The notes beneath the pieces are model-generated. The model was given only the letters and a program-made list of their open reading frames with translations, was not told the DNA's origin and did no database searches. From a virus (lineage: Duplodnaviria > Caudoviricetes): a DNA stretch of 64,000 bases. Position numbers and translations under genes: made by a program. Each line of letters opens with the position of its first letter. Positions within the stretch are counted from its first letter, which is position 1. Where the stretch lies: IMG/VR virus record IMGVR_UViG_3300035428_000399, positions 1 to 64,000 of that record; one strand, 5' to 3'. Shown piece after piece: positions 1,005-49,920 of this stretch.

Positions 1005-1036
1005 CAAAGGTAGTCAAAAACTCGCTCAAATGCAAA
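1005..1036 (-). promoter_or_regulatory. leftward promoter, probably for the repressor
   Basis: minus strand TTTG (1036-1033), 20-nt spacer, TACCTTTG (1012-1005). Confidence 0.65.
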
Positions 1037-1159
1037 TAAGTATTATATCAAAAATCCGCAGGAAATGAAAACGACGATTAACAAACATCGTAGATTCACC
1101 GAGTGTGGCTATCAAATGTCACACTCGGCTCCTGCCGCAGTTATGGGAAAGGAGGCGGT

Positions 1160-1363: not shown

Positions 1364-1422
1364 ATGCAAATAAGGTATCTGCCCTTAGCAGACAAATTAA
1401 ATATCAATAAAAATAGTTCAAC

Positions 1423-6783: not shown

Positions 6784-7239
6784 ATGGCACCAAGAAAAGA
6801 TTCATACAATATGCTCGTGCTTCAAGCTATCAAGGAGGGGCGTGACCCTAAAACTGTGAAGAAACCACCTCGGGACCCATCAGAAGGTCCGTCTGAGAGT
6901 GAGATACAGCAATCCTGCATCAAGTGGTTCCAGCTGCAGCATCGCGCCCTATGGGCAGATGGTGTGCTGTTCCATATCGCCAACGAAGGAATACGATTGG
7001 GCGGTCAAGGACGCAGGATAAAGCGTGAGGGTATTGTTCGAGGTGTAGCCGACTTATGTCTGGCTATGCCTCGTCATGGCTATGGCGCACTTTACATAGA
7101 AATGAAACGCCCGGACCGCTATCAATCTCCGGAGCAAAGGACATGGCAGAAAAACATTGAGCGTCATGGCAATAAGTACGTTGTATGCAAATCACTTGAT
7201 GAGTTTATAAAGATTATAAACCGCTATTTAGCGCAGTAA
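6784..7239 (+). CDS. VRR-NUC domain nuclease
   Basis: SESEIQQSCIKWF, FHIANEG, GVADL, LYIEMK, QSPEQ. Confidence 0.85.
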   Translation: MAPRKDSYNMLVLQAIKEGRDPKTVKKPPRDPSEGPSESEIQQSCIKWFQLQHRALWADGVLFHIANEGIRLGGQGRRIKREGIVRGVADLCLAMPRHGYGALYIEMKRPDRYQSPEQRTWQKNIERHGNKYVVCKSLDEFIKIINRYLAQ

Positions 7240-7241
7240 CT

Positions 7242-8363
7242 ATGAAGTATCAACTCCCGGATAATATAGACCAGCATTGGCTATGGAAGGATGACCCTGC
7301 TAAATTCCAGTGGTGGCTCCTGCTTTTGCGTGAGGTAGGCGACGGAGAGACCCAGCGCATGGTCCGGGGAGTGGTCTGTAAATTCGGCTTCGGCGAACTT
7401 GTAACTACCCAGGGAGAACTTGCTAAATTGTGGGGAACGACTACTGAAAAGGCTCAGGCATTCCTCCGAAAATTGGAGTCAAAAGGAGAGATTAGACGCA
7501 AAACTGACGCAAAACTGACGCGGATATTTATATGTAATATAGAGGATTACGATATTCTTGGACGCAATCTTGACGCAAAGTTGACGCACAGACGCAAAGT
7601 TGACGCAATCTTGACGCAGTTAATAGACGCAATATCAGGCTTTTCAGAAGATGATAGACGCAATCTTGACGCAAAGTTGACGCAGTTGGCAGATTTCAAA
7701 AGAAAAGAACCAAAAGAAATATATACTACACAAATTACGTCTCCTAACGGAGACGTGCAAGAAGATGAATCTTCTTGCCCTCTTTCACGCGCGCAAGAGG
7801 TGGTTGGGGATAAAAAAGCCAAGGCTAAAAAAGAACCTAAGCCCAAAAAGGAGAAAACAAAAAAATCTCCAACCCTTGTGGCTCGGGGACGGACGGTTTT
7901 TGAAGAATTTTACCAAAAGCTGTACGACAACCCCTACTACTGGACCGCGAAAGATGGAATGCACATGAAGCAGCTGCTACAAAAAATTTCTTTCAGCCGG
8001 CAACATCGTGAAAATCCCCTGCCGATAGATGATGATTCAGTTCTCGCGGCCCTCGGTCAGTTCCTCGAAAGAATCAACAAAAGCTGGGTTATGGATAACT
8101 TCTCAGTATCGACCATAAATAGCCAGTACAACAACATTATTTCTGAAATACGAAACGCATCAAAAACAGTAACCAATGGCAGAATCCTTAATACCACGGC
8201 AGCGCAAGGACGGCCAGCAGTCGGAGCCGACCTCTCTGACAGTTATCGTCAACGAGCTTCTATCCTCGCGGACATCGAAGAGGCAGACCGAAGATACCTT
8301 GAAAAGCGTGAGTCCGTTAGCGATGTCACTTATGAAGAACTACCGACCCTCCCAGGTGGCTAA
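7242..8363 (+). CDS. phage replication initiator (lambda O-like organisation)
   Basis: N-terminal winged-helix-like region, internal iteron array, low-complexity linker. Confidence 0.7.
   Translation: MKYQLPDNIDQHWLWKDDPAKFQWWLLLLREVGDGETQRMVRGVVCKFGFGELVTTQGELAKLWGTTTEKAQAFLRKLESKGEIRRKTDAKLTRIFICNIEDYDILGRNLDAKLTHRRKVDAILTQLIDAISGFSEDDRRNLDAKLTQLADFKRKEPKEIYTTQITSPNGDVQEDESSCPLSRAQEVVGDKKAKAKKEPKPKKEKTKKSPTLVARGRTVFEEFYQKLYDNPYYWTAKDGMHMKQLLQKISFSRQHRENPLPIDDDSVLAALGQFLERINKSWVMDNFSVSTINSQYNNIISEIRNASKTVTNGRILNTTAAQGRPAVGADLSDSYRQRASILADIEEADRRYLEKRESVSDVTYEELPTLPGG
7495..7684 (+). repeat. iteron array, putative replication origin
   Basis: GACGCA at 7495, 7506, 7561, 7572, 7583, 7591, 7602, 7613, 7626, 7657, 7668, 7679 (plus GACGCG at 7517), mostly 11 bp apart; A-rich tract follows. 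Confidence 0.8.
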
Positions 8364-8937
8364 AGCATATAATCCGACACTGCAGGCTGGAGTCATGGCT
8401 GCTTTCCCGACAATACTTGAAGCTCACAACGCAAAAAACATTCCGGCAATCGTGCATTTGGCTCAAGCCTATGATGAGAATGTGGCAGTAAGATGGATAC
8501 AAGACCAGTTGCTCCAAGTCAACGAGTTTGCAGGAGTGAAATCCAAGCTCAGCGATATGCAGTTGGATGAACTTGCTATCCAAATCCGTCTGGAGTACGG
8601 GTACCTCAATCTTTTTGAGTTTATCCTCTTCTGCGCCCGGCTCCGGTCGGGGCGCTATGAAGACTTCTACGGCTCTGTCGATCCCATGAGAATCCTCAAA
8701 TCCCTCGATGCCTTTTGCGCTGACCGCAGAGCCGAAATTTGGCGCGAAGCAGAGCAAAAAGAAAAAGAGGAGCGCGATAGAGAGTATGAGGAAAGTAGGA
8801 AAAACCGTATCCCATTTGATGTTTGGTATAGAAAACTCCCTGAAGAAGAAAAAGAGAAAGTGCGTGACACTCCTTATTTGGGAGGAAGAGCCAAAGAGAT
8901 TGACGAAGAGGATAAGCATAATGATAGCTCTGCTTGA
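8176..8937 (+). CDS. replication-associated protein in the helicase-loader position
   Basis: follows and overlaps the initiator; YGYLNLFEFILFC...SGRYEDFYGSVDP; start codon uncertain (8176 or 8323). Confidence 0.6.
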   Translation: MAESLIPRQRKDGQQSEPTSLTVIVNELLSSRTSKRQTEDTLKSVSPLAMSLMKNYRPSQVAKAYNPTLQAGVMAAFPTILEAHNAKNIPAIVHLAQAYDENVAVRWIQDQLLQVNEFAGVKSKLSDMQLDELAIQIRLEYGYLNLFEFILFCARLRSGRYEDFYGSVDPMRILKSLDAFCADRRAEIWREAEQKEKEERDREYEESRKNRIPFDVWYRKLPEEEKEKVRDTPYLGGRAKEIDEEDKHNDSSA

Positions 8938-8942
8938 ATAAA

Positions 8943-9034
8943 TTGCAGATTTGATTAAAATAATTGCCCATATATTTGCGTATATGATTATTTTTGATTA
9001 CTTTTGTATATGCAAATAAGATGTTTAATCAAAA
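8943..9034 (+). promoter_or_regulatory. conserved promoter module, copy A
   Basis: TTTG 8975, 20-nt spacer containing ATGATTATTT, TACTTTTG 8999-9006, TGCAAATAAG 9011, TAATCAAAA 9026. Confidence 0.8.
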
Positions 9035-9044
9035 CTCAAAAGAC

Positions 9045-9251: not shown

Positions 9252-9284
9252 ATGCAAATAAGAAATCTAACAAAATCCGCAATT

Positions 9285-9887: not shown

Positions 9888-10514
9888 ATGAATCTTTTCA
9901 AAACACTTTCAGAAGTGCTTGGCAACGGTTGCACAGCGACCATAACCATCGCACAGAAAGACGGCATCATGACCGTCGGCGTACTTCCAGGGAACAATCT
10001 CGTAAAGGACGGAGCCAAGAACAAAATCGTCCCCCTAAACATATCCGGCACACCTGAAGAACTCGACGAAGGATTCGTCGATGCCATCGCCGAGCCGGTC
10101 CGTAAGACCGCCGGTTTACTCGTAGATATGGCATCCTATGAGCAGGCCGCTGAAGAAGCCAAAGCCAACTCCAAAATGGAGGAAGAAAAGAAAATTGCCG
10201 AGGCCAATCGTAAAAAAGACTACGAAGGTTACGTCAATCTCGCCCGCACCAACCTGAAGGAGCAGAAATACCGCGACGCTCTAAAGTGTGTGGAATCCGC
10301 ACGCAAGGTCGCTCTTCCCTCTGATAAGACAGCCCTCGACACCCTGATGAACGAAATCAACTCTGCCTCTGGCGAGGGCGCGCTGTTCGGTCCATCCGAA
10401 GATAAGTCCGACGGTAAGAATATATCACTCAACGCCCCCAAGGGCAAGAAAGATAAGCCGGCATCCAGTGAGTGTGAAAGCGATTGTGAAACCAGCGAAG
10501 ACGAGGAGGAATAA
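9888..10514 (+). CDS. PRTRC system protein E
   Basis: VPLNISGTPEELDEGFVDAIAEP motif; first gene of the cassette. Confidence 0.85.
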   Translation: MNLFKTLSEVLGNGCTATITIAQKDGIMTVGVLPGNNLVKDGAKNKIVPLNISGTPEELDEGFVDAIAEPVRKTAGLLVDMASYEQAAEEAKANSKMEEEKKIAEANRKKDYEGYVNLARTNLKEQKYRDALKCVESARKVALPSDKTALDTLMNEINSASGEGALFGPSEDKSDGKNISLNAPKGKKDKPASSECESDCETSEDEEE

Positions 10515-13359: not shown

Positions 13360-14102
13360 TAACGGATTACAAGAAACCGATGATTCAGGTATTCGAGAAA
13401 TACCGACACAAGTTTGAGCCTTATAGTCTGTTCGAGAGGTTCATGGAGTTTGTCATTACGGGTTTCGATATAACATTCTCGGCAATTGAGAGACCATTCA
13501 GCAAGGAAGAGTCGGAGGTGTGCCTGGAACTTCTCAATGTATGGGTAACATCAATGAACGAGGCTCTGAAACAAAAAGAGTGGTATGATCTACTCGGCGA
13601 TATGTATATGGATTATCTCTCCGGCACCATGAAGAAGCATTGGACCGGACAATATTTCACTCCTATGCACATCTGCGAATTTATGGCTAAAATTACAGAC
13701 CCTGGAGAAATAACCGATGAAAGGGTCATGGACTGCGCTTGTGGAAGTGGCCGTATGCTTCTCGCCTCACATATTCTTCATCCAGGAAATTACTGCTGTG
13801 CTCAGGATATGGATAGAATTTGCTGCCTTATGACTGTGTGTAATTTTATTATTCACGGAGTTAACGGAGAAGTGGTATGGGGAGACAGCCTCAATCCGGC
13901 TGATTATCGCGAAGGTTGGAGAACTAATGAAGCTCTAAACGTTCTCGGTGTTCCCTGTGTGAGGAAGATGGATAAAATGGAAGCCACGTCATATCTCAGC
14001 GGTCTCGCTATGCTGGCAGAGAGGAAAGAATCAGTCAAGATACCCGCCAGCAAAGCTGAAAAGAAAAAAGCAGTCGAACCCATTCAATTAAGTCTTTTTT
14101 GA
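13356..14102 (+). CDS. N-6 DNA methylase-like protein lacking catalytic motif IV
   Basis: GQYFTP and DCACGSGRML present; no NPP(Y/F) anywhere in the 248 aa. Confidence 0.75.
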   Translation: MITDYKKPMIQVFEKYRHKFEPYSLFERFMEFVITGFDITFSAIERPFSKEESEVCLELLNVWVTSMNEALKQKEWYDLLGDMYMDYLSGTMKKHWTGQYFTPMHICEFMAKITDPGEITDERVMDCACGSGRMLLASHILHPGNYCCAQDMDRICCLMTVCNFIIHGVNGEVVWGDSLNPADYREGWRTNEALNVLGVPCVRKMDKMEATSYLSGLAMLAERKESVKIPASKAEKKKAVEPIQLSLF

Positions 14103-14879: not shown

Positions 14880-14941
14880 CTTGCATATATGATTATTTAT
14901 GTTTATCTTTGCAAATGCAAATAAGATGAATTTAATCAAAA
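14880..14941 (+). promoter_or_regulatory. conserved promoter module, copy B
   Basis: CTTG 14880, 20-nt spacer, TATCTTTG 14904-14911, TGCAAATAAG 14916, TAATCAAAA 14933. Confidence 0.8.
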
Positions 14942-14953
14942 ACCGAACTTCAA

Positions 14954-21399: not shown

Positions 21400-22476
21400 A
21401 TGAAAACAGAACAGAGTAAGTTCTCAGTCCTTCGCGGCCGACGTCAGGAAGACTTTCATGCAGAGAACTACACTACGAAGCCGTTTGTGTTTGACGGCAT
21501 ACAGAAATCAGTCTATGACAATGCGAATCTATCGATATTTGTCAACGAATCCTGCAACGCAAATTGTAAGTTCTGCGTCGATCAGTTGCGCTTCGAGGGA
21601 AAAGGGAAAATGTTTGTCAAGGGGAGATTGTCAGACGATGAAGAATACTTCGCACGTCTTGAGGAAGTTCTTCATACGTTGCGCCCTCTCAATACTTCAA
21701 TCTCGATAACCGGCGGCGAGCCCACGAAATCGCCCCGTCTTCCTCGCATCCTACAACTGGTATCGAAGTACAATTTTAGAAAGAGGGTAATCACTACCAA
21801 CGGTAGTGGGCTTCTTGATGTTGTCGCCGGGAAACGCGTAATAGACCATATAGTCGAGAACGAATTCCATCATCTAAACATATCCAAGACGCATTACCTG
21901 GAGAACGTCAACGCGGAGGTCATGCAGTTCGACAATAGCTATTTCACGAATGAGCAAATGGCAGAGGTCGTGGAGATAGCAATGTCGGGAAACGTGCGCC
22001 CACGATTGAGTTGCCTTCTCTTGAAGAGCGGAATCCACGATGTCGAAGGAATGATGCGCTATCTGGACTTCTTCAGCGCGATGGGAATAGACAATATCAT
22101 CTTCAGAGAGACGATGGATTATGACAAGTCTGCGATGCACAACTTACCGAAATTGCGCTTTCTCGAAGAGAATAAGATACTTCTAAACGACATGTGGAGC
22201 CAGATAGACCTGATGCCAAGCATATTCAAACCGATAGTGCAGGTATTGGGCTATTACTACTATTGCGAGGTCTACAAGTACAAGGGCATCGACATGGTGA
22301 CGGAGAGTGCAAATCTCGCCGCCATCGACCCACAGAAAGCCAAGGCTCCGGATACGGTCTTTGAAATGGTATTCCACCCTAACGGCAATCTCAATGGCTC
22401 ATGGATAGAGGACGAAGATGTGCTTCTCCATTATGCCGGCAACAGCTGTATTAGCTATTCAAATCGAATTAAGTAA
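21400..22476 (+). CDS. radical SAM protein
   Basis: CNANCKFC, SITGGEPT, ITTNGS. Confidence 0.9.
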   Translation: MKTEQSKFSVLRGRRQEDFHAENYTTKPFVFDGIQKSVYDNANLSIFVNESCNANCKFCVDQLRFEGKGKMFVKGRLSDDEEYFARLEEVLHTLRPLNTSISITGGEPTKSPRLPRILQLVSKYNFRKRVITTNGSGLLDVVAGKRVIDHIVENEFHHLNISKTHYLENVNAEVMQFDNSYFTNEQMAEVVEIAMSGNVRPRLSCLLLKSGIHDVEGMMRYLDFFSAMGIDNIIFRETMDYDKSAMHNLPKLRFLEENKILLNDMWSQIDLMPSIFKPIVQVLGYYYYCEVYKYKGIDMVTESANLAAIDPQKAKAPDTVFEMVFHPNGNLNGSWIEDEDVLLHYAGNSCISYSNRIK

Positions 22477-22496
22477 CTTTTCATTCAGAGAACGAT

Positions 22497-22865
22497 ATGC
22501 GTAATTGTAAAAATGTATCAGTTGGCTCATACGACAATCAAATAGAGATTGATCATCCGAGCCTTCTGCACCCAATATGGGTTGATGCCTGCATAGCAGA
22601 TGAGGTAATTTATCTGCTCCATCACAGAGTGAAGACCATAGGAAGCTGTTGCGGGCACAATAAGACGGTGCCGTCTATAGCCGTGGCACCGGAGAGTGTA
22701 AAACGCATGGAAGAACTGGGGTATAAGCACCACCTCAACGCTTGTGTCCGGCGCGGACCATATTCACGGTCGTATTTCTATGCCAAGTCGGTTAAATGCT
22801 CGCTATGGATAAAACTTACGAAAGTATGGCTACCATATCTGTGGCGCGAGATAATAGACGGCTGA
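22497..22865 (+). CDS. hypothetical phage protein
   Basis: VDACIADEV...KTIGSCCGH motif. Confidence 0.65.
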   Translation: MRNCKNVSVGSYDNQIEIDHPSLLHPIWVDACIADEVIYLLHHRVKTIGSCCGHNKTVPSIAVAPESVKRMEELGYKHHLNACVRRGPYSRSYFYAKSVKCSLWIKLTKVWLPYLWREIIDG

Positions 22866-22882
22866 TAGCGGTCCTTCACAAC

Positions 22883-22913
22883 AAAAACGAGTCTACCCTC
22901 CCGGGCAAACTCG
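22883..22913 (-). terminator. intrinsic terminator (minus strand)
   Basis: CGAGUUUGCCC-GGGA-GGGUAGACUCG-UUUUU: 11-bp stem, GNRA loop; two G-U pairs form only on the minus strand. Confidence 0.8.
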
Positions 22914-22999
22914 CTCATATGCAAATAAGATATCTAATCAAAAATCCGACAAGATGCTTTCCCTAAAGAGCGCATCAGGGACTCAAAATTAAATATCAA
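22883..22999 (-). ncRNA. candidate trans-acting antisense sRNA (5' end approximate)
   Basis: minus-strand promoter at 23005-23036 and minus-strand intrinsic terminator at 22883-22913; body complementary to repeated gene-start motifs. Confidence 0.65.
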
Positions 23000-23004
23000 T
23001 GCTG

Positions 23005-23036
23005 CAAAGGTACTAAAAATGCAGCACATTATCAAC
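23005..23036 (-). promoter_or_regulatory. leftward promoter for the sRNA candidate
   Basis: minus strand GTTG (23036-23033), 20-nt spacer, TACCTTTG (23012-23005). Confidence 0.65.
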
Positions 23037-23115
23037 ATTTTGAGGAGAAAAATCAGCAATCTAACATGGGTGGTGTTGCGCGAATAATCATATTGATTAT
23101 TTTTAATCAGACAAA

Positions 23116-23146
23116 TTGCGTAACTCCCGATTTTTGATTAACTTTG
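23116..23146 (+). promoter_or_regulatory. promoter of the ParB/methyltransferase cluster
   Basis: TTG 23116-23118, 20-nt spacer, TAACTTTG 23139-23146; TGATTA/TAATCA boxes nearby. Confidence 0.65.
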
Positions 23147-23171
23147 CGCTTATGGAATTATCATAAACACA

Positions 23172-23843
23172 ATGACTAAAAAGGATATACGAAAACTAAA
23201 AGCCAATCCCGATAATCCGCGTACCATGAGCGAGTTTATGGAGGGCAAGTTGATAGAGAGCATCCTGGTTTTCCCGAAGATGCTTGAGCTTCGCCCCATA
23301 CTCATCAACAAGGAGGACGTGATAATCGGCGGTAACGGACGCGTGGAGTGTCTTAACAAGATCCTCGAACTCGATGACAACGAAATCGAGGATTACATGT
23401 TCAATCAGAAGAAATTCCGAATGGCTACATCGGAAGAGCAGACCGCATTGCTCGCATTCTGGGCCAAATGGAAGAATAAACCCGTGGTGCCAGTCCGGGT
23501 GCTCGATGATGTGTCAACCGAGGAGGAAAAGGAAATTCTCGTGAAAGACAATCTCCACTACGGCGAGGACGACATCGAGATTATGAAGCGCCATTTCGAG
23601 CGCGAGGCAATCGGTGATTATCTTGGAGCCGTTGCTTGGAACCTCTACGATTACGACGACAAGATCAACGACAAAAACCTCGACTTGACAAAGACTTATC
23701 CGGAGAAATTCAAGTGTGGCTATGTTGAATGCCAGATGACCGACCAAGAATTCAAGGGACTGTGCGCTCGCCTTGAGAAGTATCTTGAGGAACACGACGG
23801 CATAAGCGACGGATTTTTAACCTCATTACTTCTCGGCAAATGA
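23172..23843 (+). CDS. ParB-like N-terminal domain protein
   Basis: LKANPDNPR...RPILINKEDVIIGGNGRV. Confidence 0.8.
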   Translation: MTKKDIRKLKANPDNPRTMSEFMEGKLIESILVFPKMLELRPILINKEDVIIGGNGRVECLNKILELDDNEIEDYMFNQKKFRMATSEEQTALLAFWAKWKNKPVVPVRVLDDVSTEEEKEILVKDNLHYGEDDIEIMKRHFEREAIGDYLGAVAWNLYDYDDKINDKNLDLTKTYPEKFKCGYVECQMTDQEFKGLCARLEKYLEEHDGISDGFLTSLLLGK

Positions 23844-24562
23844 AAAAGGACGTAAAAGAACTGACAATAAACCCTATCAATCCCCGCAAGATTGTCATAG
23901 GGCAGAAACGCCGTCTTCAGCAGAGCATCATGCTCTTTCCGAAGATGCTCACATACCGCGACATCATCGTCAACAAGGATAACGTAGTGCTTGCCGGCAA
24001 CCAGCGTACTACGATTCTCAAGGAAATTCTCACTTCCACTCCAATGGATTGGATGGTAATTCTTCAAGAGAATGAGAAGTGGCAGGAGTTGACCGAGAAG
24101 CAGCGCGACGCCGTAATCGAATACTGGAAAGCATGGGTCGAAAATCCTCTCATCGAAGTAACAGTCGCCGATTTGTCCGAAGAGGAAGAGAAGGAACTCA
24201 TCATCAAAGATAATAACGAGTTCGGCGAGTTTGATTATGGCAAACTCCAGCAAATATACGACGAAATCAATCTCGTAAACTTCGGCTTCGACGAGGGACT
24301 TTTCTATAATCCCGACGAGGATGAGACCGTAATGACGAAAATCAAGGGCTCCACTCCGAAGAAAATCAATATGCTTACATTCGGCAAGAATGTTGTGTCT
24401 GTAACCAAGGAAGAATACGACACACTCGTGAATCGCTACAACGATTATGTGGACGAAACCGGGGTAAACTTCGGCTTTGTCAAGAGCTTGCTGGAGAATA
24501 GCGCTGCTGAAGAGGAAGAAGAAAGCGATGATGACGACACAGTTTTTGAAATGCCTCAATAA
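23840..24562 (+). CDS. ParB-like N-terminal domain protein (paralog of the preceding gene)
   Basis: LTINPINPR...IIVNKDNVVLAGNQR; shared FPKML and EEEKE-x-I-x-KDN. Confidence 0.8.
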   Translation: MKKDVKELTINPINPRKIVIGQKRRLQQSIMLFPKMLTYRDIIVNKDNVVLAGNQRTTILKEILTSTPMDWMVILQENEKWQELTEKQRDAVIEYWKAWVENPLIEVTVADLSEEEEKELIIKDNNEFGEFDYGKLQQIYDEINLVNFGFDEGLFYNPDEDETVMTKIKGSTPKKINMLTFGKNVVSVTKEEYDTLVNRYNDYVDETGVNFGFVKSLLENSAAEEEEESDDDDTVFEMPQ

Positions 24563-26008: not shown

Positions 26009-26067
26009 TTTGCGTAATTGATTAAATTTCAGTATATTTGTAGTTGCAAATAAGATACTAATCAAAA
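26009..26067 (+). promoter_or_regulatory. conserved promoter module, copy C
   Basis: TTTG 26009, 20-nt spacer, TATATTTG 26033-26040, TGCAAATAAG 26045, TAATCAAAA 26059. Confidence 0.8.
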
Positions 26068-26072
26068 ACAAA

Positions 26073-26543
26073 ATGGTCGAAATAGAATATTGCTACTTCC
26101 GCAATACCTACAAAATAATATGGTTGCGGTACGTCTATGGAGTAGACCTCAACACGCACTGCATGAAAAGTCTTCTTGGGCACAATGACAAACGTGTCAA
26201 AGGCTTTATGCGGTCTCTTCCTCCCAACATGGAATTGGAAGAAAGCAGGTTCTACTATCTCTGCGGAGTCGATAAGGATTTCAATTGGAACAAAAACCTC
26301 CATATTCCCTTTGTCCGCAGTGTGGGACAGACTCTTGAGATTGACAACGAGTTTGTCAAAATCAAGATTAACAATGCCCGAATGATTCACATTGATACGA
26401 GCTACATCAATTGGAATCTTCCGCAAGCCCGAAACAAGCTCTTCAACACCTGCAGGAATTGGCAGTTTGCGAATATGCTGGCGTCAATTCCCAGTGTGCC
26501 ACAAACTCCTACACAATCCCAATTAGGACTTTTCGATAAATAA
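26073..26543 (+). CDS. uncharacterised Cys/His-motif protein, paralog of 41311-41814
   Basis: WLRYVYGVDLNTHC, YYLCGV, NLHIPF, NTCR. Confidence 0.7.
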   Translation: MVEIEYCYFRNTYKIIWLRYVYGVDLNTHCMKSLLGHNDKRVKGFMRSLPPNMELEESRFYYLCGVDKDFNWNKNLHIPFVRSVGQTLEIDNEFVKIKINNARMIHIDTSYINWNLPQARNKLFNTCRNWQFANMLASIPSVPQTPTQSQLGLFDK

Positions 26544-26555
26544 ACCAATTCTGTT

Positions 26556-26954
26556 ATGAGAAAACCCTCTCTTGACGAATTTGAAGACGCCATCCGAAAG
26601 ACCGGCGGCAATCTCTCGCAGACTGCCGGTCTTCTCGGTGTGACCCGGCAGACAGTCCACAACTGGGTCCGAGAAGACGGCGAATTCAAAAGCGTTGTGC
26701 AGGATTCCCGAAAGAAACTCTTCGACCAGTGCCTTGATGCGGCCCGCATTGTTGCTCTTGGTGTTCCACACATCGATCCGGCCACCGGGCATATTCTTGG
26801 CTGGAAAGAGAAGCCCGACGGACAGATGCTCCGTTATCTGCTGTCAACACTTGGACGTGATGAGGGCTTCGGCGAATCCGTGAATGTAAATCTTGAGAAT
26901 CCTTTACCAACAGTGATAAACATCGTAAGAGATCCGGACGCAAAACGTGAATGA
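26556..26954 (+). CDS. terminase small subunit-like HTH protein
   Basis: GGNLSQTAGLLGVTRQTVHNW; YLLSTLGRDEGF; upstream of terL. Confidence 0.6.
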   Translation: MRKPSLDEFEDAIRKTGGNLSQTAGLLGVTRQTVHNWVREDGEFKSVVQDSRKKLFDQCLDAARIVALGVPHIDPATGHILGWKEKPDGQMLRYLLSTLGRDEGFGESVNVNLENPLPTVINIVRDPDAKRE

Positions 26955-29634
26955 AATATACCTCATAGAGAAGGACGCGGAGGGCTATTATGAATTGTAT
27001 TTTTATAATAGCCCTGCTTTGGCATACTTTATCCAGAAGATACCGTCTGCCCGCTTCATCATGCGCGACAGATGTTGGCGCGTGAATCTCCAAGACCGCC
27101 TATTCGTCCGCGAATTCTGTGATTATGCTGTGCGGCGCCGGCTAGCATCTTCAGTATGCCGTGTCGGCGACCGTGCGGAGGTGCAGGGCTATCCCGACAA
27201 GATGCCCGACCTGCAATATCCAATTACCCATCTGAAGCTTCAGCCCTACGACTATCAAAGGAAAGGGATTCAGTACATGGTGGACCACAAGAGGTGTTTC
27301 AACGGCGACGATATGGGTCTTGGTAAAGATCAGCCCTACTCTGAGCCTATACTAACCCCTCATGGATTTGTGCCCATGGGAGACTTGAAAGTCGGAGATA
27401 ATGTCGTAGGCGCAGATGGTAAAGCGGCAAAAGTGCTCAATATCTTTGAGCAAGGTATAAAAGATGTCTACACAGTCAGGTTTAGCGATGGGACGCAAAC
27501 CCGGTGTGGATTAGAGCATCTGTGGAATGTAATAACGCCTAATTGGAAACGGAGAGGAAGTGGGTACAAAGTGCTCCAACTTTCGGACATAATTGGTGAC
27601 CTATGCTACGAGGTGGTAGATAAGCGAGATAATATAACGCGAAAGAATTACAAGTATTCTATCCCGTTATGCCGACCGGTAGAGTTTTCAAGTGCGGCGA
27701 ATCTACCTATTCCACCGTATGTGCTTGGCGTTATCATAGGCGACGGATGTCTTACAGCTCATGGTACAAGAATATCGAAGCCGAATATTAACGTCAGAGA
27801 CGCCGTTGTTTCCGAACTAAGAATTGTCGGCTCGAATGACGTTGTAGGTGGTTTTACGAAAGACGGAATGTCGTTTACCATAAAAAACAAAATTGGCAAC
27901 CGACCCAGTAGTACGACGGAGGCTTTGAGGGAGCTCGGTCTATTTGGAATCACATCTAAACGCAAGTATATCCCTGATGTATATAAATATTCAACCGTGC
28001 AAGATCGCCAGGATTTATTGCGGGGCTTGATAGATACGGATGGGCATGTCGTGAAAACTGATTTCATAGAATATAGCACAGCCTCGCCAAAATTAGCAGA
28101 AGATGTGGCTTTTGTCGCACGCTCATTGGGCTATATGGCTCGATGTGAATACAGAGAGTCCGCATACAACAATGAAGGAAAGAAATTCGGTAATTACAGA
28201 GTTTATCTGTATGGAAGAACGTGCAGAAAAAATAAGACTATCACTAGCATAGAGCACTTTGGAAAAGAATTATCTCGATGCATAGTTGTAGATAATGAAG
28301 ATCACCTCTATCTGACGAGAGATTTTATTGTGACGCACAACACATTCCAGTCAATCGCGGCCGTCTCGATTGCGCGGGCTTATCCTTGCCTTGTGGTGGC
28401 GCCGGCGACAATGAAAGTAACCTGGCAACGGGAGTTTCAGCGTTTCATCGGCAAGCAGGCTATGATTCTCTCCAATGAGAACAAAGACACATGGCACCGC
28501 CACATGGAGACGGGCACCTGCAATATCTTCATCACGAACTATGAGAGTGTCAAGAAATATTTCGTGAGCCGGATCCGTGGCCGGACTACCGTCAAGAATA
28601 TCGTCCTCGATAAGAGAGCCGCCATGTTCAAGTCGGTAATCATTGATGAATCCCATCGGTGCTGCAACAACACTGCGTTATGGTCGATATATCTTGAGGC
28701 TATATGCGCAAACAAGGAATATGTATGGCTATTGACTGGTACTCCTCGCATAACGAGCAATGTTGACTTGATTCAGCAGCTTCAGATAATGCGGCGACTT
28801 GAAGACTTCGGCGGAGCCGCAAGATTCAGGGAACGCTATTGTCAAGGACCGGATAAATCGTCCAATCTCTATGAGCTACACTACCGCCTATGGGAAATAT
28901 GCTACTTCCGAAGGGATAAAGCTATCGCTCTGAAAGACCTCCCGGAGAAAACCCGCCAATATCTCACTGTGGATATCGATAACCGCAAGGAGTATGAATT
29001 TGCCGAGAATGACCTTATCCGCTATCTCGAGGAATATGAGTCTGCTTCCGATGCCACTCTCAAGAGTGCTGCCAAGGCTACGGCTATGGTACAGATTAAC
29101 CATCTGCGTCAAATATCTGCTCGTGGCAAGATGAAAGAGGCGAAGCAATTCATTCACGATGTTATCGACGGCGGCGACAAGCTAATAGTATTCGCTTTCC
29201 ACAAGTCGGTAATGTCGGAGATAATGGCTACGTTCCCCGGCAGTGTCTCCGTGACGGGCTCCGATTCGCAGGAGAAGAAGCAGGCGGCTATCGACAAGTT
29301 CCAGAATGCCCCCGACTGCAAGCTGATTGCCCTCAACTACAAGTCCGGCGGCGTGGGCATCACCTTGACTGCGGCATCGAGGATATTGTTCATCGAGTTT
29401 CCCTGGACTGCTTCGGACTGCGAGCAGGCGGAATGTCGAGCCCATCGCAACGGCCAGAAGAACGCTGTCAACTGCTACTATCTTTTGGCGCGGAATACTA
29501 TCGATGAAAGAATACTTGAGATCATTCAGAAAGAGCGCGAAGATTCAAGCGTCGTTACCGGCGCTATCAACAATATCGAGGAAAGCATTGTGGACGCGAC
29601 CCTCAGACACTTTAAAAGCAAACATAAAATTTGA
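26947..29634 (+). CDS. SNF2-family helicase interrupted by an intein
   Basis: GDDMGLGK|T, IIDESH, LLTGTP, GVGITLTAAS, QAECRAHRNGQ. Confidence 0.9.
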   Translation: MNEIYLIEKDAEGYYELYFYNSPALAYFIQKIPSARFIMRDRCWRVNLQDRLFVREFCDYAVRRRLASSVCRVGDRAEVQGYPDKMPDLQYPITHLKLQPYDYQRKGIQYMVDHKRCFNGDDMGLGKDQPYSEPILTPHGFVPMGDLKVGDNVVGADGKAAKVLNIFEQGIKDVYTVRFSDGTQTRCGLEHLWNVITPNWKRRGSGYKVLQLSDIIGDLCYEVVDKRDNITRKNYKYSIPLCRPVEFSSAANLPIPPYVLGVIIGDGCLTAHGTRISKPNINVRDAVVSELRIVGSNDVVGGFTKDGMSFTIKNKIGNRPSSTTEALRELGLFGITSKRKYIPDVYKYSTVQDRQDLLRGLIDTDGHVVKTDFIEYSTASPKLAEDVAFVARSLGYMARCEYRESAYNNEGKKFGNYRVYLYGRTCRKNKTITSIEHFGKELSRCIVVDNEDHLYLTRDFIVTHNTFQSIAAVSIARAYPCLVVAPATMKVTWQREFQRFIGKQAMILSNENKDTWHRHMETGTCNIFITNYESVKKYFVSRIRGRTTVKNIVLDKRAAMFKSVIIDESHRCCNNTALWSIYLEAICANKEYVWLLTGTPRITSNVDLIQQLQIMRRLEDFGGAARFRERYCQGPDKSSNLYELHYRLWEICYFRRDKAIALKDLPEKTRQYLTVDIDNRKEYEFAENDLIRYLEEYESASDATLKSAAKATAMVQINHLRQISARGKMKEAKQFIHDVIDGGDKLIVFAFHKSVMSEIMATFPGSVSVTGSDSQEKKQAAIDKFQNAPDCKLIALNYKSGGVGITLTAASRILFIEFPWTASDCEQAECRAHRNGQKNAVNCYYLLARNTIDERILEIIQKEREDSSVVTGAINNIEESIVDATLRHFKSKHKI
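27328..28341 (+). mobile_element. class 3 intein with LAGLIDADG homing endonuclease (338 aa), inserted in Walker A
   Basis: starts D-QPYSEPILTP, block B EHLW, block F SRCIVVD, ends IVTHN/T; LGVIIGDG and LRGLIDTDG motifs. Confidence 0.9.
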
Positions 29635-42079: not shown

Positions 42080-42119
42080 CGAATAATCCGCGACGTGACC
42101 TAATCAGAGCGAGAAAAAT

Positions 42120-42214
42120 TTGCAGATTTGATTAAAATAACGGCTATAAAAGTTGCAGGAATGATTATTTTTGATTATCTTTGCGTATGCAAATAAGATA
42201 AAACTAATCAAAAA
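42120..42214 (+). promoter_or_regulatory. conserved promoter module, copy D
   Basis: GTTG 42152, 20-nt spacer, TATCTTTG 42176-42183, TGCAAATAAG 42188, TAATCAAAA 42206. Confidence 0.8.
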
Positions 42215-42225
42215 CATCGGACACG

Positions 42226-43271: not shown

Positions 43272-43646
43272 ATGTCAGCAACAGCAGAACTTATGGAAAT
43301 TGGTCTGGCTCCTGGGTGTGTTCATACCAATGCACGAGAGAAGAAATACTATCTAATGAAACGCTTTGTCAGAGCCGCAATCCAGTACGCAGAGCGTGTC
43401 CAAAAGACAACAGTGAAAATCGTGGCTTTCTTCCTCTATGAGACACCTTTCAACAGCATCGTTATGGTGAACAACGAAAGCACATTCAACGACGTGTCGG
43501 ACATCTTCTGCACGCCCGAATTTACCAACGATGAACGTCGGGAAATCCTCATAAACCTCAAAGTCACAGATAACGAGACGTGCGAAGCAGCCTCTCGTGG
43601 ATATCGACTCTCTTCGGCTCCAGTTTTAGCAGTAATAACATTCTAA
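43272..43646 (+). CDS. hypothetical protein
   Basis: A-rich start context. Confidence 0.55.
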   Translation: MSATAELMEIGLAPGCVHTNAREKKYYLMKRFVRAAIQYAERVQKTTVKIVAFFLYETPFNSIVMVNNESTFNDVSDIFCTPEFTNDERREILINLKVTDNETCEAASRGYRLSSAPVLAVITF

Positions 43647-43659
43647 ATTAAATATCAAT

Positions 43660-44367
43660 ATGCCAAACCACATCACAAGTCGCCTGACAATCACAGGCGA
43701 GGCTGCAGAAGTAGCAAAAGTGTTCGCTTTCATCAAAGCCGACGAACCCGATAAAGACGGATCATATCGTCTAATGGACCTCAACAAAATCGTTCCGATG
43801 CCTGAAGAACTTGACATCGAAAGTTCTACACTCGTTGAAGACGGCGCCGACTACCTCTTAGGGCTTTCGGGGAATTGCCTTGAAGTTGCGGACTTCAAAC
43901 AGACTTCCAAATACCAGCGCATGGCAAAAATGGAAAAGGAGAACCCCAAAATGTTTGAACAGGCAATAGAGCTCGGCAGAAAGAAATTGCATAACATCGC
44001 CAACTACGGAGATGGCGATTGGTATAGTTGGAGAATATCAAACTGGGGAACCAAATGGAACGCCTACAGCCACCATCAGGTGGACAAAAACACAATCGAA
44101 TTCCAGACGGCGTGGAACGGAATCCCACAGATTATCGCACTCATCGCTGAGGAATTCCCCACTGTCTTCATCGAATATAAATTTGCCGACGAAAACGCCG
44201 GCTACAATGTCGGTCACTTCAAATTCCACGACGGAGAGATAGAAGACCTAAGCCCGGAGGACGACACGCCCGAAGCGTGGGAGCTTGTTTTTGAACTCGG
44301 CGTAAGAGACAGAGAAGATTATGTTCAACTGCCCAACGGCTCGTGGGAATATCGCAACGATGAATAG
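43660..44367 (+). CDS. DUF1281/YubB-like ferredoxin-fold protein
   Basis: MPNHITSRLTITG...WYSWRISNWGTKWNA...FQTAW. Confidence 0.8.
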   Translation: MPNHITSRLTITGEAAEVAKVFAFIKADEPDKDGSYRLMDLNKIVPMPEELDIESSTLVEDGADYLLGLSGNCLEVADFKQTSKYQRMAKMEKENPKMFEQAIELGRKKLHNIANYGDGDWYSWRISNWGTKWNAYSHHQVDKNTIEFQTAWNGIPQIIALIAEEFPTVFIEYKFADENAGYNVGHFKFHDGEIEDLSPEDDTPEAWELVFELGVRDREDYVQLPNGSWEYRNDE

Positions 44368-45618: not shown

Positions 45619-45699
45619 ACGAAGCAAGTTAACCACATCGGCGCAGCTTTATCGTGAGATACGGCTGCATCATTATTTATGCGTAAGACTCTAAAAGTC

Positions 45700-45792
45700 T
45701 TGCAGATGCGATTAAAATAGTTGCTCTAAAATTTGCGTATGTGATTATTTATTGCTACTTTTGTATATGCAAATAAGATGATTTAATCAAAA
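45700..45792 (+). promoter_or_regulatory. conserved promoter module, copy E
   Basis: TTTG 45732, 20-nt spacer, TACTTTTG 45756-45763, TGCAAATAAG 45768, TAATCAAAA 45784. Confidence 0.8.
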
Positions 45793-45803
45793 CCGAAAAG
45801 ACC

Positions 45804-46979: not shown

Positions 46980-47016
46980 TCAGCAATAGAATCACTCAAA
47001 ATTAAATATCAATAAA

Positions 47017-48849
47017 ATGCAAGTAAGAAATATCGCACTCAGCGAGATTGTTCCCAGCGAACTCAATCCTCGCAAGACGTTCAGCCAGGAAGAACTCGAA
47101 GAACTCGCCCAGAGTATCAAGGAGAACGGCCTCATTCAGCCCATCACTCTCCGCAAAATCGGCAACAAGAAAGACTCCAAGTATGAAATCGTGTGTGGCG
47201 AACGCCGTTTCCGCGCCTGCCAGCTCATCGGAGCCAAGGACATCCAGGCCGTCGTCAAGGAACTCAACGACAAGCAGGCTTTCGCTTGCATGATTATCGA
47301 GAACCTGCAGCGCAAGGACATCGACCCGATGGAAGAAGCCGCCGCCCTTAACCGCCTCTACGCCGAAGGCACCGTAACGGTAGTGGAAATGGCGAAGATG
47401 CTCGGCAAAAGTACAAGTTTCGTTTCGGGTCGCATCCAGCTCCACAATACCATCGAGCCGTTTGTCAAGCTCATGCGCGACGGCGTTCTGGTCCTGACAC
47501 ATCTTCTCGACATCTGCAAGCTGCCCGCTGAGCAACAGCAGACTCTCTACGACTCGTGTTTCACCGAGGCAAGCCGCGAGCGTTGGCCGTACAAATTCCC
47601 CAACATGCCCCAGCTCCACGAAATGATAGACGAGCATGTCATGAACCATCTGTCTACGGCCCGATTCAGTCTTACAGACGACACCCTCGCCGGCGCGTGT
47701 GCCTGCGACAAGTGTCCTCTCAACACCGCCAACAATCCCGACAATGCCCGCGATGTCAGCACTCCGCGTTGCATGAAGCGAGAATGCTTCCTCGCCAAGG
47801 CCCGCGAGTCAATCTTCCGCGAGGCTAAGGAAGCCTCCAAGAACGGCATCAAGATTGTCTTCGCCGGTGATTATGCGGAGAGCGAAGCGCTCCTGCAGGC
47901 CGCAGATGAATATGGTCTGGTCGTTTCGGGTCTCGGCAACCGTCAATATGTGGCGGAGCCGGTAGCTCCTGACCCCGCGCAGTATAAAGACGAAGAAACC
48001 TATGCAATCCGCAAGGCGAACTACGACAAGGTCCGCGCCGTCTTCGACGACAATCTCAAGGACGGCACCATCACCCCGGTCTACGAGATATGCTTCAGCG
48101 GACTTCTCAGTGGCGAAACCAAGTATGTCTACTATGTGCCCGACACTGAGGAAGAGCCGTTTGCCGGCAACAAGCTCGCCGACAACAATCGTCGTATCTC
48201 CGAACTCAAGGTCAAGCTCCACGAAGCCAACGAGCACCGCAAGGAAGAGTTTGTTGAACGTCAGCGCTCGTTCATGGAATCGGCCGAGTATTCCACGCTC
48301 AACACCGACCTCTCACCCGTAGAATCGCTCATTTTCCGTGCGCTCGTCCTCAAGCGTCTGCCCGTGGCATTCAAGGAATCCATCGGCTGTGGCGAAGCCC
48401 AGGCCAAAGACTTCCGCGAAGCCGGCGGATCTGTCGAAAAGAACTTCAACGCCATTGCCCGCGAATTTATTCGCTCAATTCTTTCCGAAAAGAGCGTGAA
48501 CTTCTCGCCTGAATTGGCAGAAATGCTCTCAGCAATCATGGAAGACCGCTACGCTCATAACGTCGATGAGATTGCCAAACAGCTCGACGCACGATATAGC
48601 CAGTCTAAGGCCGGCATTCAGGCCAAGATCGACGAACTCCGCGAGGAGAACGAGAAAGAAATCCAATCGCAAGCCGCTATCAGTCCCGACGCTAAAGCCG
48701 AAGAAGCAACCGAAACCGGCGAAGCCGAGCCGACCGACACAACCGAGGTAGAAGAGGCGGAATCGCCCAGTGTGCCGGACGCACCCGAAGAAGTCGAAGA
48801 AACTCCTGACGCTACAGATGCGGCCGAGGACACCGACAAGGAAGAATAA
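47017..48849 (+). CDS. ParB/Spo0J family protein (PRTRC ParB-like)
   Basis: NPRKTF...LAQSIKENGLIQPI...VCGERRFRA...ENLQRKDI; CACDKCPLNT...RCMKREC; acidic tail. Confidence 0.88.
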   Translation: MQVRNIALSEIVPSELNPRKTFSQEELEELAQSIKENGLIQPITLRKIGNKKDSKYEIVCGERRFRACQLIGAKDIQAVVKELNDKQAFACMIIENLQRKDIDPMEEAAALNRLYAEGTVTVVEMAKMLGKSTSFVSGRIQLHNTIEPFVKLMRDGVLVLTHLLDICKLPAEQQQTLYDSCFTEASRERWPYKFPNMPQLHEMIDEHVMNHLSTARFSLTDDTLAGACACDKCPLNTANNPDNARDVSTPRCMKRECFLAKARESIFREAKEASKNGIKIVFAGDYAESEALLQAADEYGLVVSGLGNRQYVAEPVAPDPAQYKDEETYAIRKANYDKVRAVFDDNLKDGTITPVYEICFSGLLSGETKYVYYVPDTEEEPFAGNKLADNNRRISELKVKLHEANEHRKEEFVERQRSFMESAEYSTLNTDLSPVESLIFRALVLKRLPVAFKESIGCGEAQAKDFREAGGSVEKNFNAIAREFIRSILSEKSVNFSPELAEMLSAIMEDRYAHNVDEIAKQLDARYSQSKAGIQAKIDELREENEKEIQSQAAISPDAKAEEATETGEAEPTDTTEVEEAESPSVPDAPEEVEETPDATDAAEDTDKEE

Positions 48850-49791: not shown

Positions 49792-49817
49792 GCTTTACTA
49801 TCAATCGCCCGAATAAA

Positions 49818-49909
49818 TTGCAGATTTGATTAAAACAACCTCTCTAAAATTTGCGTATATGATTATATTTGATTACTTTTGTATATGCAAATAAGATGTT
49901 TAATCAAAA
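49818..49909 (+). promoter_or_regulatory. conserved promoter module, copy F
   Basis: TTTG 49850, 20-nt spacer, TACTTTTG 49874-49881, TGCAAATAAG 49886, TAATCAAAA 49901; nearly identical to copy A. Confidence 0.8.
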
Positions 49910-49920
49910 CTCAAAGAACG

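Follow-up and report, generated by a model that had tools for sequence, protein, structure and literature searches.

The DNA analysed here is the first 64 kb (64,000 nucleotides (nt), referred to below as the window) of the IMG/VR record IMGVR_UViG_3300035428_000399, a single virus record of 89,123 bp from the Caudoviricetes; the element in question is a short minus-strand unit at 22883-23036 that very probably gives rise to a small RNA (sRNA), predicted from the sequence to be about 118 nt long. Long open reading frames (ORFs) lie nearly all on the plus strand, and the unit is placed within a 306-nt spacer flanked by ORF 22497-22865 and ORF 23172-23843. By Pfam, an AAA_24 (Sak4-like) ATPase was found at 1423, PRTRC-E at 9888, a DUF1281_C protein at 43660 and ParB at 47017. 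Relatives of the neighbouring gene were found in 18 IMG/VR contigs, part of them classed as provirus, and in genomes titled Muribaculaceae, Barnesiella, Porphyromonadaceae, Bacteroidaceae and Prevotella, as well as in one short contig labelled Eggerthellaceae; because these relatives occur in proviruses and in Bacteroidales-titled genomes, the phage is judged to be a temperate phage of (gut) Bacteroidales.

The unit is bounded by a promoter and an intrinsic terminator (Table 1), both proposed in an initial annotation that had been made from the letters of the DNA and whose coordinates all held on re-check. The reverse complement of 23005-23036 reads GTTG-N20-TACCTTTG, and TACCTTTG meets the -7 consensus TAnnTTTG of sigma-ABfr promoters (PMC7366714). 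A terminator scan of 22000-24000 gave one site, on the minus strand at 22916-22885 (14 pairs counting G-T, GGGA loop, T run), in line with the minus-strand-only terminator first described. That the unit holds no meaningful ORF was likewise borne out: only a 41-aa TTG ORF overlaps it, starting upstream of the promoter, and the homologues described below show indels that would shift a reading frame, along with compensatory changes in the stem, which marks the unit as non-coding. Small plus-strand ORFs in the spacer were considered and discarded, the compensatory variation of the stem region being a misfit for coding sequence.

Table 1. Predicted features of the sRNA unit and of its candidate target sites in the window (net cofold gain as defined in the text)
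Feature	Position	Strand	Net cofold gain (kcal/mol)	Details
sRNA promoter	23005..23036	-		GTTG (-33) at 23036-23033; 20-nt spacer; -7 box TACCTTTG at 23012-23005
Predicted sRNA, ~118 nt	22883..23000	-		putative start ~5 nt past -7 box
Stem-loop 1	22929..22997	-		5' arm pairs with 3' arm; apical hairpin GAUGC/GCAUC; in minimum free energy and centroid folds
Seed	22917..22931	-		invariant block UCUUAUUUGCAU at 22930-22919
Intrinsic terminator	22883..22916	-		14-bp stem including G-U pairs; GGGA (GNRA) loop; U5 tract
Palindrome	23083..23101			perfect, AATAATCATATTGATTATT; between sRNA promoter and divergent plus-strand promoter
Divergent promoter of neighbouring ParB-like/methyltransferase operon	23116..23146	+	-2.3	leader without seed complement; gain at background
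Early rightward operon 5' UTR, strongest predicted target	1016..1064	+	-24.9	complementary to sRNA nt 46-96, near-continuous (~45 nt), up to ATG at 1065
Intercistronic target before Sak4-like ATPase gene	1364..1408	+	-17.5	seed complement plus AAATTAAATATCAAT
Class I leader	9008..9037	+	-21.5	promoter module 8976-9006; start ~5 nt past -7 box
Intercistronic target	9252..9275	+	-17.1	no promoter box
Class I leader	14915..14941	+	-19.0
Class I leader	26045..26068	+	-18.1	28 nt before ATG at 26073
Class I leader	42186..42214	+	-21.1
Class I leader	45765..45792	+	-23.9
parB translation-start region	46994..47013	+	-15.2	20-nt perfect complement of sRNA 5' end
Class I leader	49883..49909	+	-22.0	last before long block ~50 to 74 kb

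Structure and distribution of the transcript

Folding of the minus strand gave -49.4 kcal/mol (z -6.7) against -24.0 kcal/mol (z -2.8) for the plus strand; across folds, the predicted transcript reached -45.9 to -49.4 kcal/mol. The initial annotation had drawn two free seeds, one at the 5' end and one before the terminator, with the small GAUGC/GCAUC hairpin as a separator between them. This layout was given up: in the predicted fold, seed 1 is the 5' arm and the distal half of seed 2 the 3' arm of one long stem-loop, with GAUGC/GCAUC at its tip. Between the long stem and the terminator lies the 12-nt block UCUUAUUUGCAU, invariant in alignments of 11 and of 12 sequences. In the partition function, nt 73-84 of the transcript (UUAUUUGCAUAU, 22928-22917) are unpaired with a probability of ~0.99 and constitute its sole long single-stranded stretch; because they alone do so, while opening of the stem would cost ~10 kcal/mol for the 5' arm and ~13 kcal/mol for the 3' arm, the functional seed is, according to the folding model, this invariant linker and not the two arms proposed at first.

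The unit is present at ~25 related Bacteroidales phage or prophage loci, in a single copy per phage. Most of the upstream regions of the 18 related loci show it; more distant copies came from a search with a seed-plus-loop pattern. Five features are common to the homologues, namely the TAnnTTTG box, the base of a long stem 7-8 nt further on, the block UCUUAUUUGCAU, a GNRA-loop hairpin and a U-rich tail. The TAnnTTTG box keeps its distance of 7-8 nt from the stem base in every homologue lineage examined, despite diverged flanks; the loop of the terminator is GNRA (GGGA, GUGA or GCGA) in every phage homologue, with the U-rich tail after it; and -7 box, stem, seed and GNRA terminator are retained together in at least 8 diverged lineages. 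The long stem is kept in all homologues, though it is built from unrelated sequences.

MAFFT alignment of all lineages left stem-loop 1 unalignable, and RNAalifold recovered the terminator only, the stem of which covaries in this unfitted alignment (7 of its 11 pairs changed on both sides). Since MAFFT could not align stem-loop 1, per-sequence folds were used beside a covariance model built from six close homologues; the model gave 137 bits at the sRNA locus and 27-61 bits for diverged homologues, with one copy per phage. In the model alignment, 91.5% of cells were paired (73.7% after shuffling, with none of 500 shuffles reaching 91.5%; 35-54% with the partners slid) and both-side changes were seen at 32 of 33 pairs, counts that come from an alignment fitted to the model and hence favour the structure. 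Helices 1-3 were 77-93% paired, with 21 of 22 pairs changed on both sides; helices 4-5 were 95-100% paired. Base pairs of the stems covary strongly; the covariation of seeds and targets in related phages, which the initial annotation had named as a check, is described below. G-U cells numbered 107 and A-C cells 18, an excess expected only if the minus strand is the RNA strand, which is therefore so assigned. Of 16 homologues folded from promoter to terminator, 15 gave a lower energy in the sense than in the antisense orientation, by 3.5 to ~26 kcal/mol. Taken together, the sequence data strongly favour a promoter-to-terminator, non-coding RNA gene on the minus strand.

Host genomes with the prophage hold exactly one copy of the sRNA each; among cultured lysogens, Barnesiella sp. 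WM24 (133 bits) and Muribaculaceae IMSAGC_006 gave model scores of 133-136 bits. The sRNA model gave 0 matches in a sample of 150 other Bacteroidales genomes, on which ground a host chromosomal sRNA family was rejected. No DNA match to the locus was found in the INPHARED phage records. Rfam 15 (including FopS, RF04319, and c4) gave 0 matches at the gathering score over the whole window; a local scan at permissive E reached at most 19.4 bits, which is chance level. Weak model matches at 1325-1409 and 978-1079 of the window (E 0.4-0.8) were rejected as further sRNA genes of the same phage, being leader-like target sites without promoter or terminator. Three loci on GC-rich contigs that the seed-plus-loop pattern had returned (L038, L044 and L053; locus numbers are those of the analysis) were not counted as members; they carry neither a -7 box nor the long stem. 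L044 (3508-3570) and L053, on unrelated GC-rich IMG/VR phage contigs, show the word TCTTATTTGCAT directly followed by a GCGA-loop hairpin (31.7 bits, E 8e-4), which may be due to chance or represent a far-diverged 3' module of this type.

Leader sites and other features of the window

The complement of the seed, ATGCAAATAAGA, occurs on the coding strand only, 16-47 nt upstream of start codons. Perfect complementarity of at least 13 nt to the sRNA was found at 15 sites on the plus strand and at 0 on the minus strand, and six relatives show the same bias. The recurring leader motif of the initial annotation was recovered as GCAAATAAGA-N-TAATCAAAA. This pattern matches the window exactly at 7 places, where 0 were expected, and the whole 89-kb genome at 11, every one of which reads on the plus strand. 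Read on the plus strand, the sRNA locus itself is a promoterless consensus copy of this leader, with the terminator hairpin where other copies carry the promoter.

Two classes of copies were distinguished. Class I copies (those of Table 1 and, beyond the window, 74206 and 86211) start ~5 nt past the -7 box of a repeated promoter module, that is, at the predicted 5' end of the mRNA. Class II copies (1018-1061, 1364, 9252, 74995, 81684-81736 and 87621) have no promoter box and lie in 5' untranslated regions (UTRs) or between cistrons. Across seven genomes, a 10-nt core lies mostly 16-47 nt before the next ORF-opening ATG; its distance to the promoter box is 4-5 nt or undefined, and no copy is at +1 in the lineage of genome G009 (genome numbers as used in the analysis; the present genome is G000). 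Because the promoter distance varies while the ATG distance is mostly 16-47 nt, the position relative to the start codon is taken as the constant feature.

Pairing was assessed as the net cofold gain, i.e., the gain of the dimer after the structures of both partners had been accounted for. It was -17 to -27 kcal/mol for leader-bearing targets and ~-3 kcal/mol for random windows; two promoters without the word gave background values as well (neighbouring-operon leader, Table 1; P73424, -2.9 kcal/mol). For the early leader, whose promoter lies at 949-979, a duplex energy of -62 kcal/mol was computed. The 19/20 match that had been noted at 1021-1040 is real, and it aligns with 22910-29, which is linker plus terminator arm. 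Just before the complementary region, at 1003-1016, the early leader contains a small hairpin (GACTAC-GCAAAG-GTAGTC); the same DNA carries on its opposite strand a promoter-like TTG-N20-TACCTTTG (1035-1005).

The matches to the 5' end of the sRNA fared unevenly as targets. The 20-mer ACTCAAAATTAAATATCAAT is exact at 22981 and, as first described, at 46994, with 2 mismatches at 43640 (0.02 chance matches expected), and TTAAATATCAAT is present in five copies, all on the plus strand (0.57 expected), four of which sit 3-26 nt before the starts of the Sak4-like AAA_24, PRTRC-E, DUF1281_C and ParB genes. As targets of the 5' end, PRTRC-E and DUF1281 were dropped, their cofold gains (-3.8 and -6.5 kcal/mol) being near the background of ~-3. 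The parB site was kept in part: its gain is given in Table 1, and the match is significant in three of six lineages (G000, G002, G005) and absent in G004, G006 and G009. In G005, the match of the parB start to the 5' arm has a different sequence from that in other lineages.

Between lineages, seed and leaders change together. In the G006/G007 lineage, the sRNA seed is UAUUAUUUGCA instead of UCUUAUUUGCA, a C-to-A change, and all 8-11 leader copies read GCAAATAATA instead of GCAAATAAGA (AAGA to AATA); UAUUAUUUGCA is the only seed variant that was seen with a full leader set. At Class II sites, complementarity runs on into the 5' terminator arm with lineage-specific sequence: G009 has stretches of 27 and 25 nt, G005 one of 25 nt and the present genome one of 20 nt, and none of those sRNAs matches another genome over more than 16 nt. 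Because the terminator arm covaries with its partner arm, the Class II flanks are seen to follow an element of RNA structure. It is this joint change of sRNA and targets that, as far as sequences can argue, speaks most strongly for the match being meaningful.

Phage specificity was examined in three lysogen genomes (2.4-3.5 Mb), the initial annotation having proposed a look at host gene starts. The 12-mer was found in or beside the prophage (9 of 9 copies within ~70 kb in G015; 7 of 8 within ~72 kb in G011), and the other copies in G011 and G013 are on short separate contigs; no host target with a perfect seed match was found in these genomes outside the prophage or its short contigs. The motif is therefore phage-specific in these three genomes, confined to the prophage or to adjacent or short contigs, and no common property of host gene starts. 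A related provirus (G008:C1:26822-26912; locus L080, ~6822-6912) carries three tandem CGTTCCTATGCAAATAA(G/A)A copies, 37-43 nt apart and with no nearby start codon; this cluster of seed complements could serve as a sponge or decoy for the sRNA of that provirus.

The Class I leaders belong to a repeated promoter cassette of ~105 nt (8936-9040, 14881-14943, 26010-26072, 42113-42217, 45693-45797 and 49811-49915; beyond the window 73424, 74174, 80369 and 86176), which is laid out as two TTGCnnATnTGATTA boxes 33 bp apart (the second overlapping the -33 region), exactly 20 nt, the TAnnTTTG box and the leader. The promoters at 23116 and 73424 are without the leader word and would escape the sRNA; that at 80369 carries a variant with 2 mismatches. 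The core of the palindrome beside the sRNA promoter (Table 1) is conserved in the close relatives L001-L006, with a variant in L007, and its TGATTA half-sites recur in phage promoter boxes; it is a probable operator for a regulator protein.

Two further features of the window were recorded. A SNF2-family helicase (895 aa, 26947-29634, plus strand) has LAGLIDADG_3 and Hom_end domains at aa 350-429, between its SNF2 N-terminal and helicase C-terminal parts, and the interruption looks like an intein. At 7495-7684, inside ORF 7242-8363, a 28-nt direct repeat is present four times, with iteron-like GACGCAA(A/T)NTT units, which could mark a replication origin within an initiator gene.

Proposed action and competing explanations

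The locus is probably the gene of a trans-acting antisense sRNA directed against the shared leader, with repression as its likely effect. From the multi-target sRNA of the initial annotation, the RNA gene and its complementarity to the leader of most plus-strand operons are retained; the two-seed layout and the PRTRC-E and DUF1281 targets are not. Bacteroidetes mRNAs have no Shine-Dalgarno sequence and rely on A residues at -3, -6 and -11 to -15, and Bacteroides sRNAs function without Hfq or ProQ and may need extended seeds (PMC7366714).

The following course of events is proposed. A host-type sigma-ABfr promoter would start the minus-strand RNA at the base of the long stem-loop, and the exposed segment UCUUAUUUGCAU would nucleate pairing with AUGCAAAUAAGA, a few nt from the predicted 5' end of most plus-strand operon mRNAs (which are predicted to start within ~3 nt of GCAAAUAAGA) and also at intercistronic sites. 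From there, the duplex would grow either through the 3' arm of the stem, toward the A-rich stretch that precedes the start codon, or through the 5' terminator arm; ribosome access would be occluded and double-stranded RNA formed, with repression of the first cistron as the most likely outcome and the rest of the operon affected via polarity or decay. The 5' arm of the sRNA may additionally pair with the parB start region. Lysogens would produce the sRNA, which would act on related phages that enter them as well; expression in lysogens is suggested because the gene lies opposite to the lytic-gene strand and its promoter is without the repeated boxes of the phage. Repression and a role in lysogeny are what we infer from this arrangement, and one RNA could in this way control nearly the whole phage genome.

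A further step would make the sRNA the main, or a main, determinant of immunity specificity: the prophage RNA would shut off leader-bearing mRNAs of the resident phage and of incoming relatives, and the immunity classes would be given by the AAGA/AATA seed variant together with the flanks that match the terminator arm. This step is tentative, and on balance doubtful. As to the CI repressor to which the initial annotation had added this RNA layer, the putative repressor ORF at 328-822 gave no helix-turn-helix and no significant Pfam domain.

Several observations weigh against an antisense sRNA acting on the leaders. The 5' end of the sRNA is sequestered in the stem, at the opening cost given above; in one homologue, L040, the fold of the opposite strand is the more stable; and the covariation counts were obtained from a fitted alignment. 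The seed complement resembles the third box of a ~33-bp direct repeat, TTGCnnATnnGATnA, at ~-66, -33 and +1, and in G004 the -66 boxes are identical to it over 15 nt in ~10 modules, which argues for a role at the DNA level. Finally, concerted evolution of the promoter-leader cassettes could keep the sRNA locus leader-like without any pairing function.

The repeated word ATGCAAATAAGAT could on these grounds be mainly a DNA operator, i.e., box 3 of a phased protein-binding array at phage promoters; the copy in the sRNA gene would be an extra operator or the relic of a duplicated cassette, and the RNA, perhaps real, would act locally (e.g., against upstream read-through) or on the early leader only. 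The promoter modules do contain TTGC-starting boxes spaced 33-34 bp, the third of them at ~+1, and G004 (loci L029-L033, e.g., 13850-13930) has the word TTGCAAATAAGATAAA twice per promoter module, at ~-66 and ~+1, the best evidence for an additional DNA-level role. TGATTA half-sites recur, including in the conserved palindrome beside the sRNA promoter; the TTGCnnATnnGATTA boxes and the palindrome 23083-23101 would be the candidate protein sites, and a change of protein specificity could likewise account for the genome-wide AAGA to AATA switch. Yet ~40% of the copies are without a nearby promoter box and all of them are nevertheless plus-oriented and 16-47 nt before a start codon, none being at +1 in G009; the flanks of solitary copies track the sRNA terminator arm of each lineage to 25-27 nt, which is not required by a protein site; and in the sRNA the position of the word coincides with the one stretch that is unpaired. 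A word that is mainly an operator is for these reasons held to be unlikely, and constraints at the DNA and at the RNA level could act together.

The same evidence for pairing is compatible with an sRNA that acts positively, covering the 5' ends of the mRNAs and so protecting them from 5'-end-dependent decay, or timing lytic expression, and that would be a factor of the lytic phase and not of immunity. The seed target lies at the predicted mRNA 5' terminus, and the 25-47 nt between it and the start codon put it outside the footprint typical of a ribosome; however, in many leaders the extended pairing reaches to ~7-10 nt from the start codon, over the A-rich -11 to -15 region (PMC7366714), and in the early leader to the ATG itself, and the gene is opposite to the lytic strand, with a promoter that has no phage box array. 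A positive role is accordingly rated as improbable. That there is no sRNA at all and the locus is a plus-strand element on read-through transcripts (pseudo-leader, processing site or insulator hairpin) with look-alikes of a minus-strand promoter and terminator is hardly credible, and a purely plus-strand element is unlikely: the plus-strand fold beats shuffled sequence (z as above), the locus is homologous to plus-strand leaders, no plus-strand terminator separates it from the upstream operon and L040 folds better on that strand, but the spacing of -7 box and stem is kept in all lineages, only the minus strand has GNRA loops and U tracts, and the G-U excess and the sense folds of 15 of 16 homologues point the same way.

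Related RNAs and significance

The RNAs nearest to the present one are c4 of phages P1/P7, CI of P4, P22 sar and the GibS type of Bacteroides. The c4 RNA of P1/P7 (immI) is a repressor that pairs short exposed segments with sites by the ribosome-binding region of a phage mRNA; it is excised from a transcript that carries its target, and it controls one operon (icd-ant). The predicted sRNA described here is like c4 in being a small structured phage RNA with short exposed segments complementary to sites near translation starts; in c4, specificity resides in few complementary bases, a paired change of which makes the phage heteroimmune, and the joint AAGA to AATA change of seed and leaders is a parallel. 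It does not belong to the c4 family: promoter and terminator are its own, all its putative targets are on the other strand, at a distance of 3-59 kb, and it matches ~10-25 sites on many operons; no Rfam family, c4 included, matches it. Its host phylum is without Shine-Dalgarno sequences and Hfq. In satellite phage P4, the immunity factor is likewise an RNA, CI, and its sequence, like that of the present sRNA, is complementary to repeated sites in the phage's own transcripts. Processing of the leader of the controlled operon yields CI, which has two target sites and works through premature termination of transcription; no terminators were found after the leaders here.

With GibS-type Bacteroides sRNAs (Ryan et al. 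2020, PMC7366714), the RNA shares a promoter of the sigma-ABfr type, an intrinsic terminator, low GC content, an extended single-stranded seed and, presumably, independence of Hfq and ProQ; GibS is chromosomal and directed to host metabolic mRNAs, whereas the present RNA is phage-borne, with perfect 12-nt seed matches only in or beside the prophage in the three host genomes. FopS (Rfam RF04319), a Bacteroidota sRNA family, has a different seed, besides giving no match at the gathering score in the window. P22 sar, lambda OOP and BTP1 STnc6030 (PMC12197685) are prophage antisense RNAs that by base pairing shape the lysis-lysogeny choice or exclude superinfecting relatives, to which extent they are comparable; each of them is antisense to one overlapping or adjoining gene, and none is aimed at a leader common to most operons. 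The 2025 review of phage sRNAs, in which c4 is listed, has nothing on Bacteroidota, and none of the RNAs it describes is directed at a leader common to several operons (PMC12197685).

Post-transcriptional control in Bacteroidota, with no Shine-Dalgarno sequence, Hfq or ProQ, is poorly understood, and next to nothing is known of the regulatory circuits in its abundant gut phages. The locus offers a compact and easily tested system, consisting of one small RNA, an invariant 12-nt seed and a dozen natural targets of graded complementarity, with natural seed-and-target variants in related phages, some of which are in cultured isolates. If the leaders are repressed as proposed, a temperate Bacteroidales phage would use a single RNA both to keep most of its genome in check and to shut out related phages, and the locus would provide an orthogonal RNA switch for engineering gut Bacteroidales. 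Should the role in immunity specificity also prove true, Bacteroidota phages would have their first example of genome-wide immunity based on an RNA, and one that is free of Hfq and ProQ.

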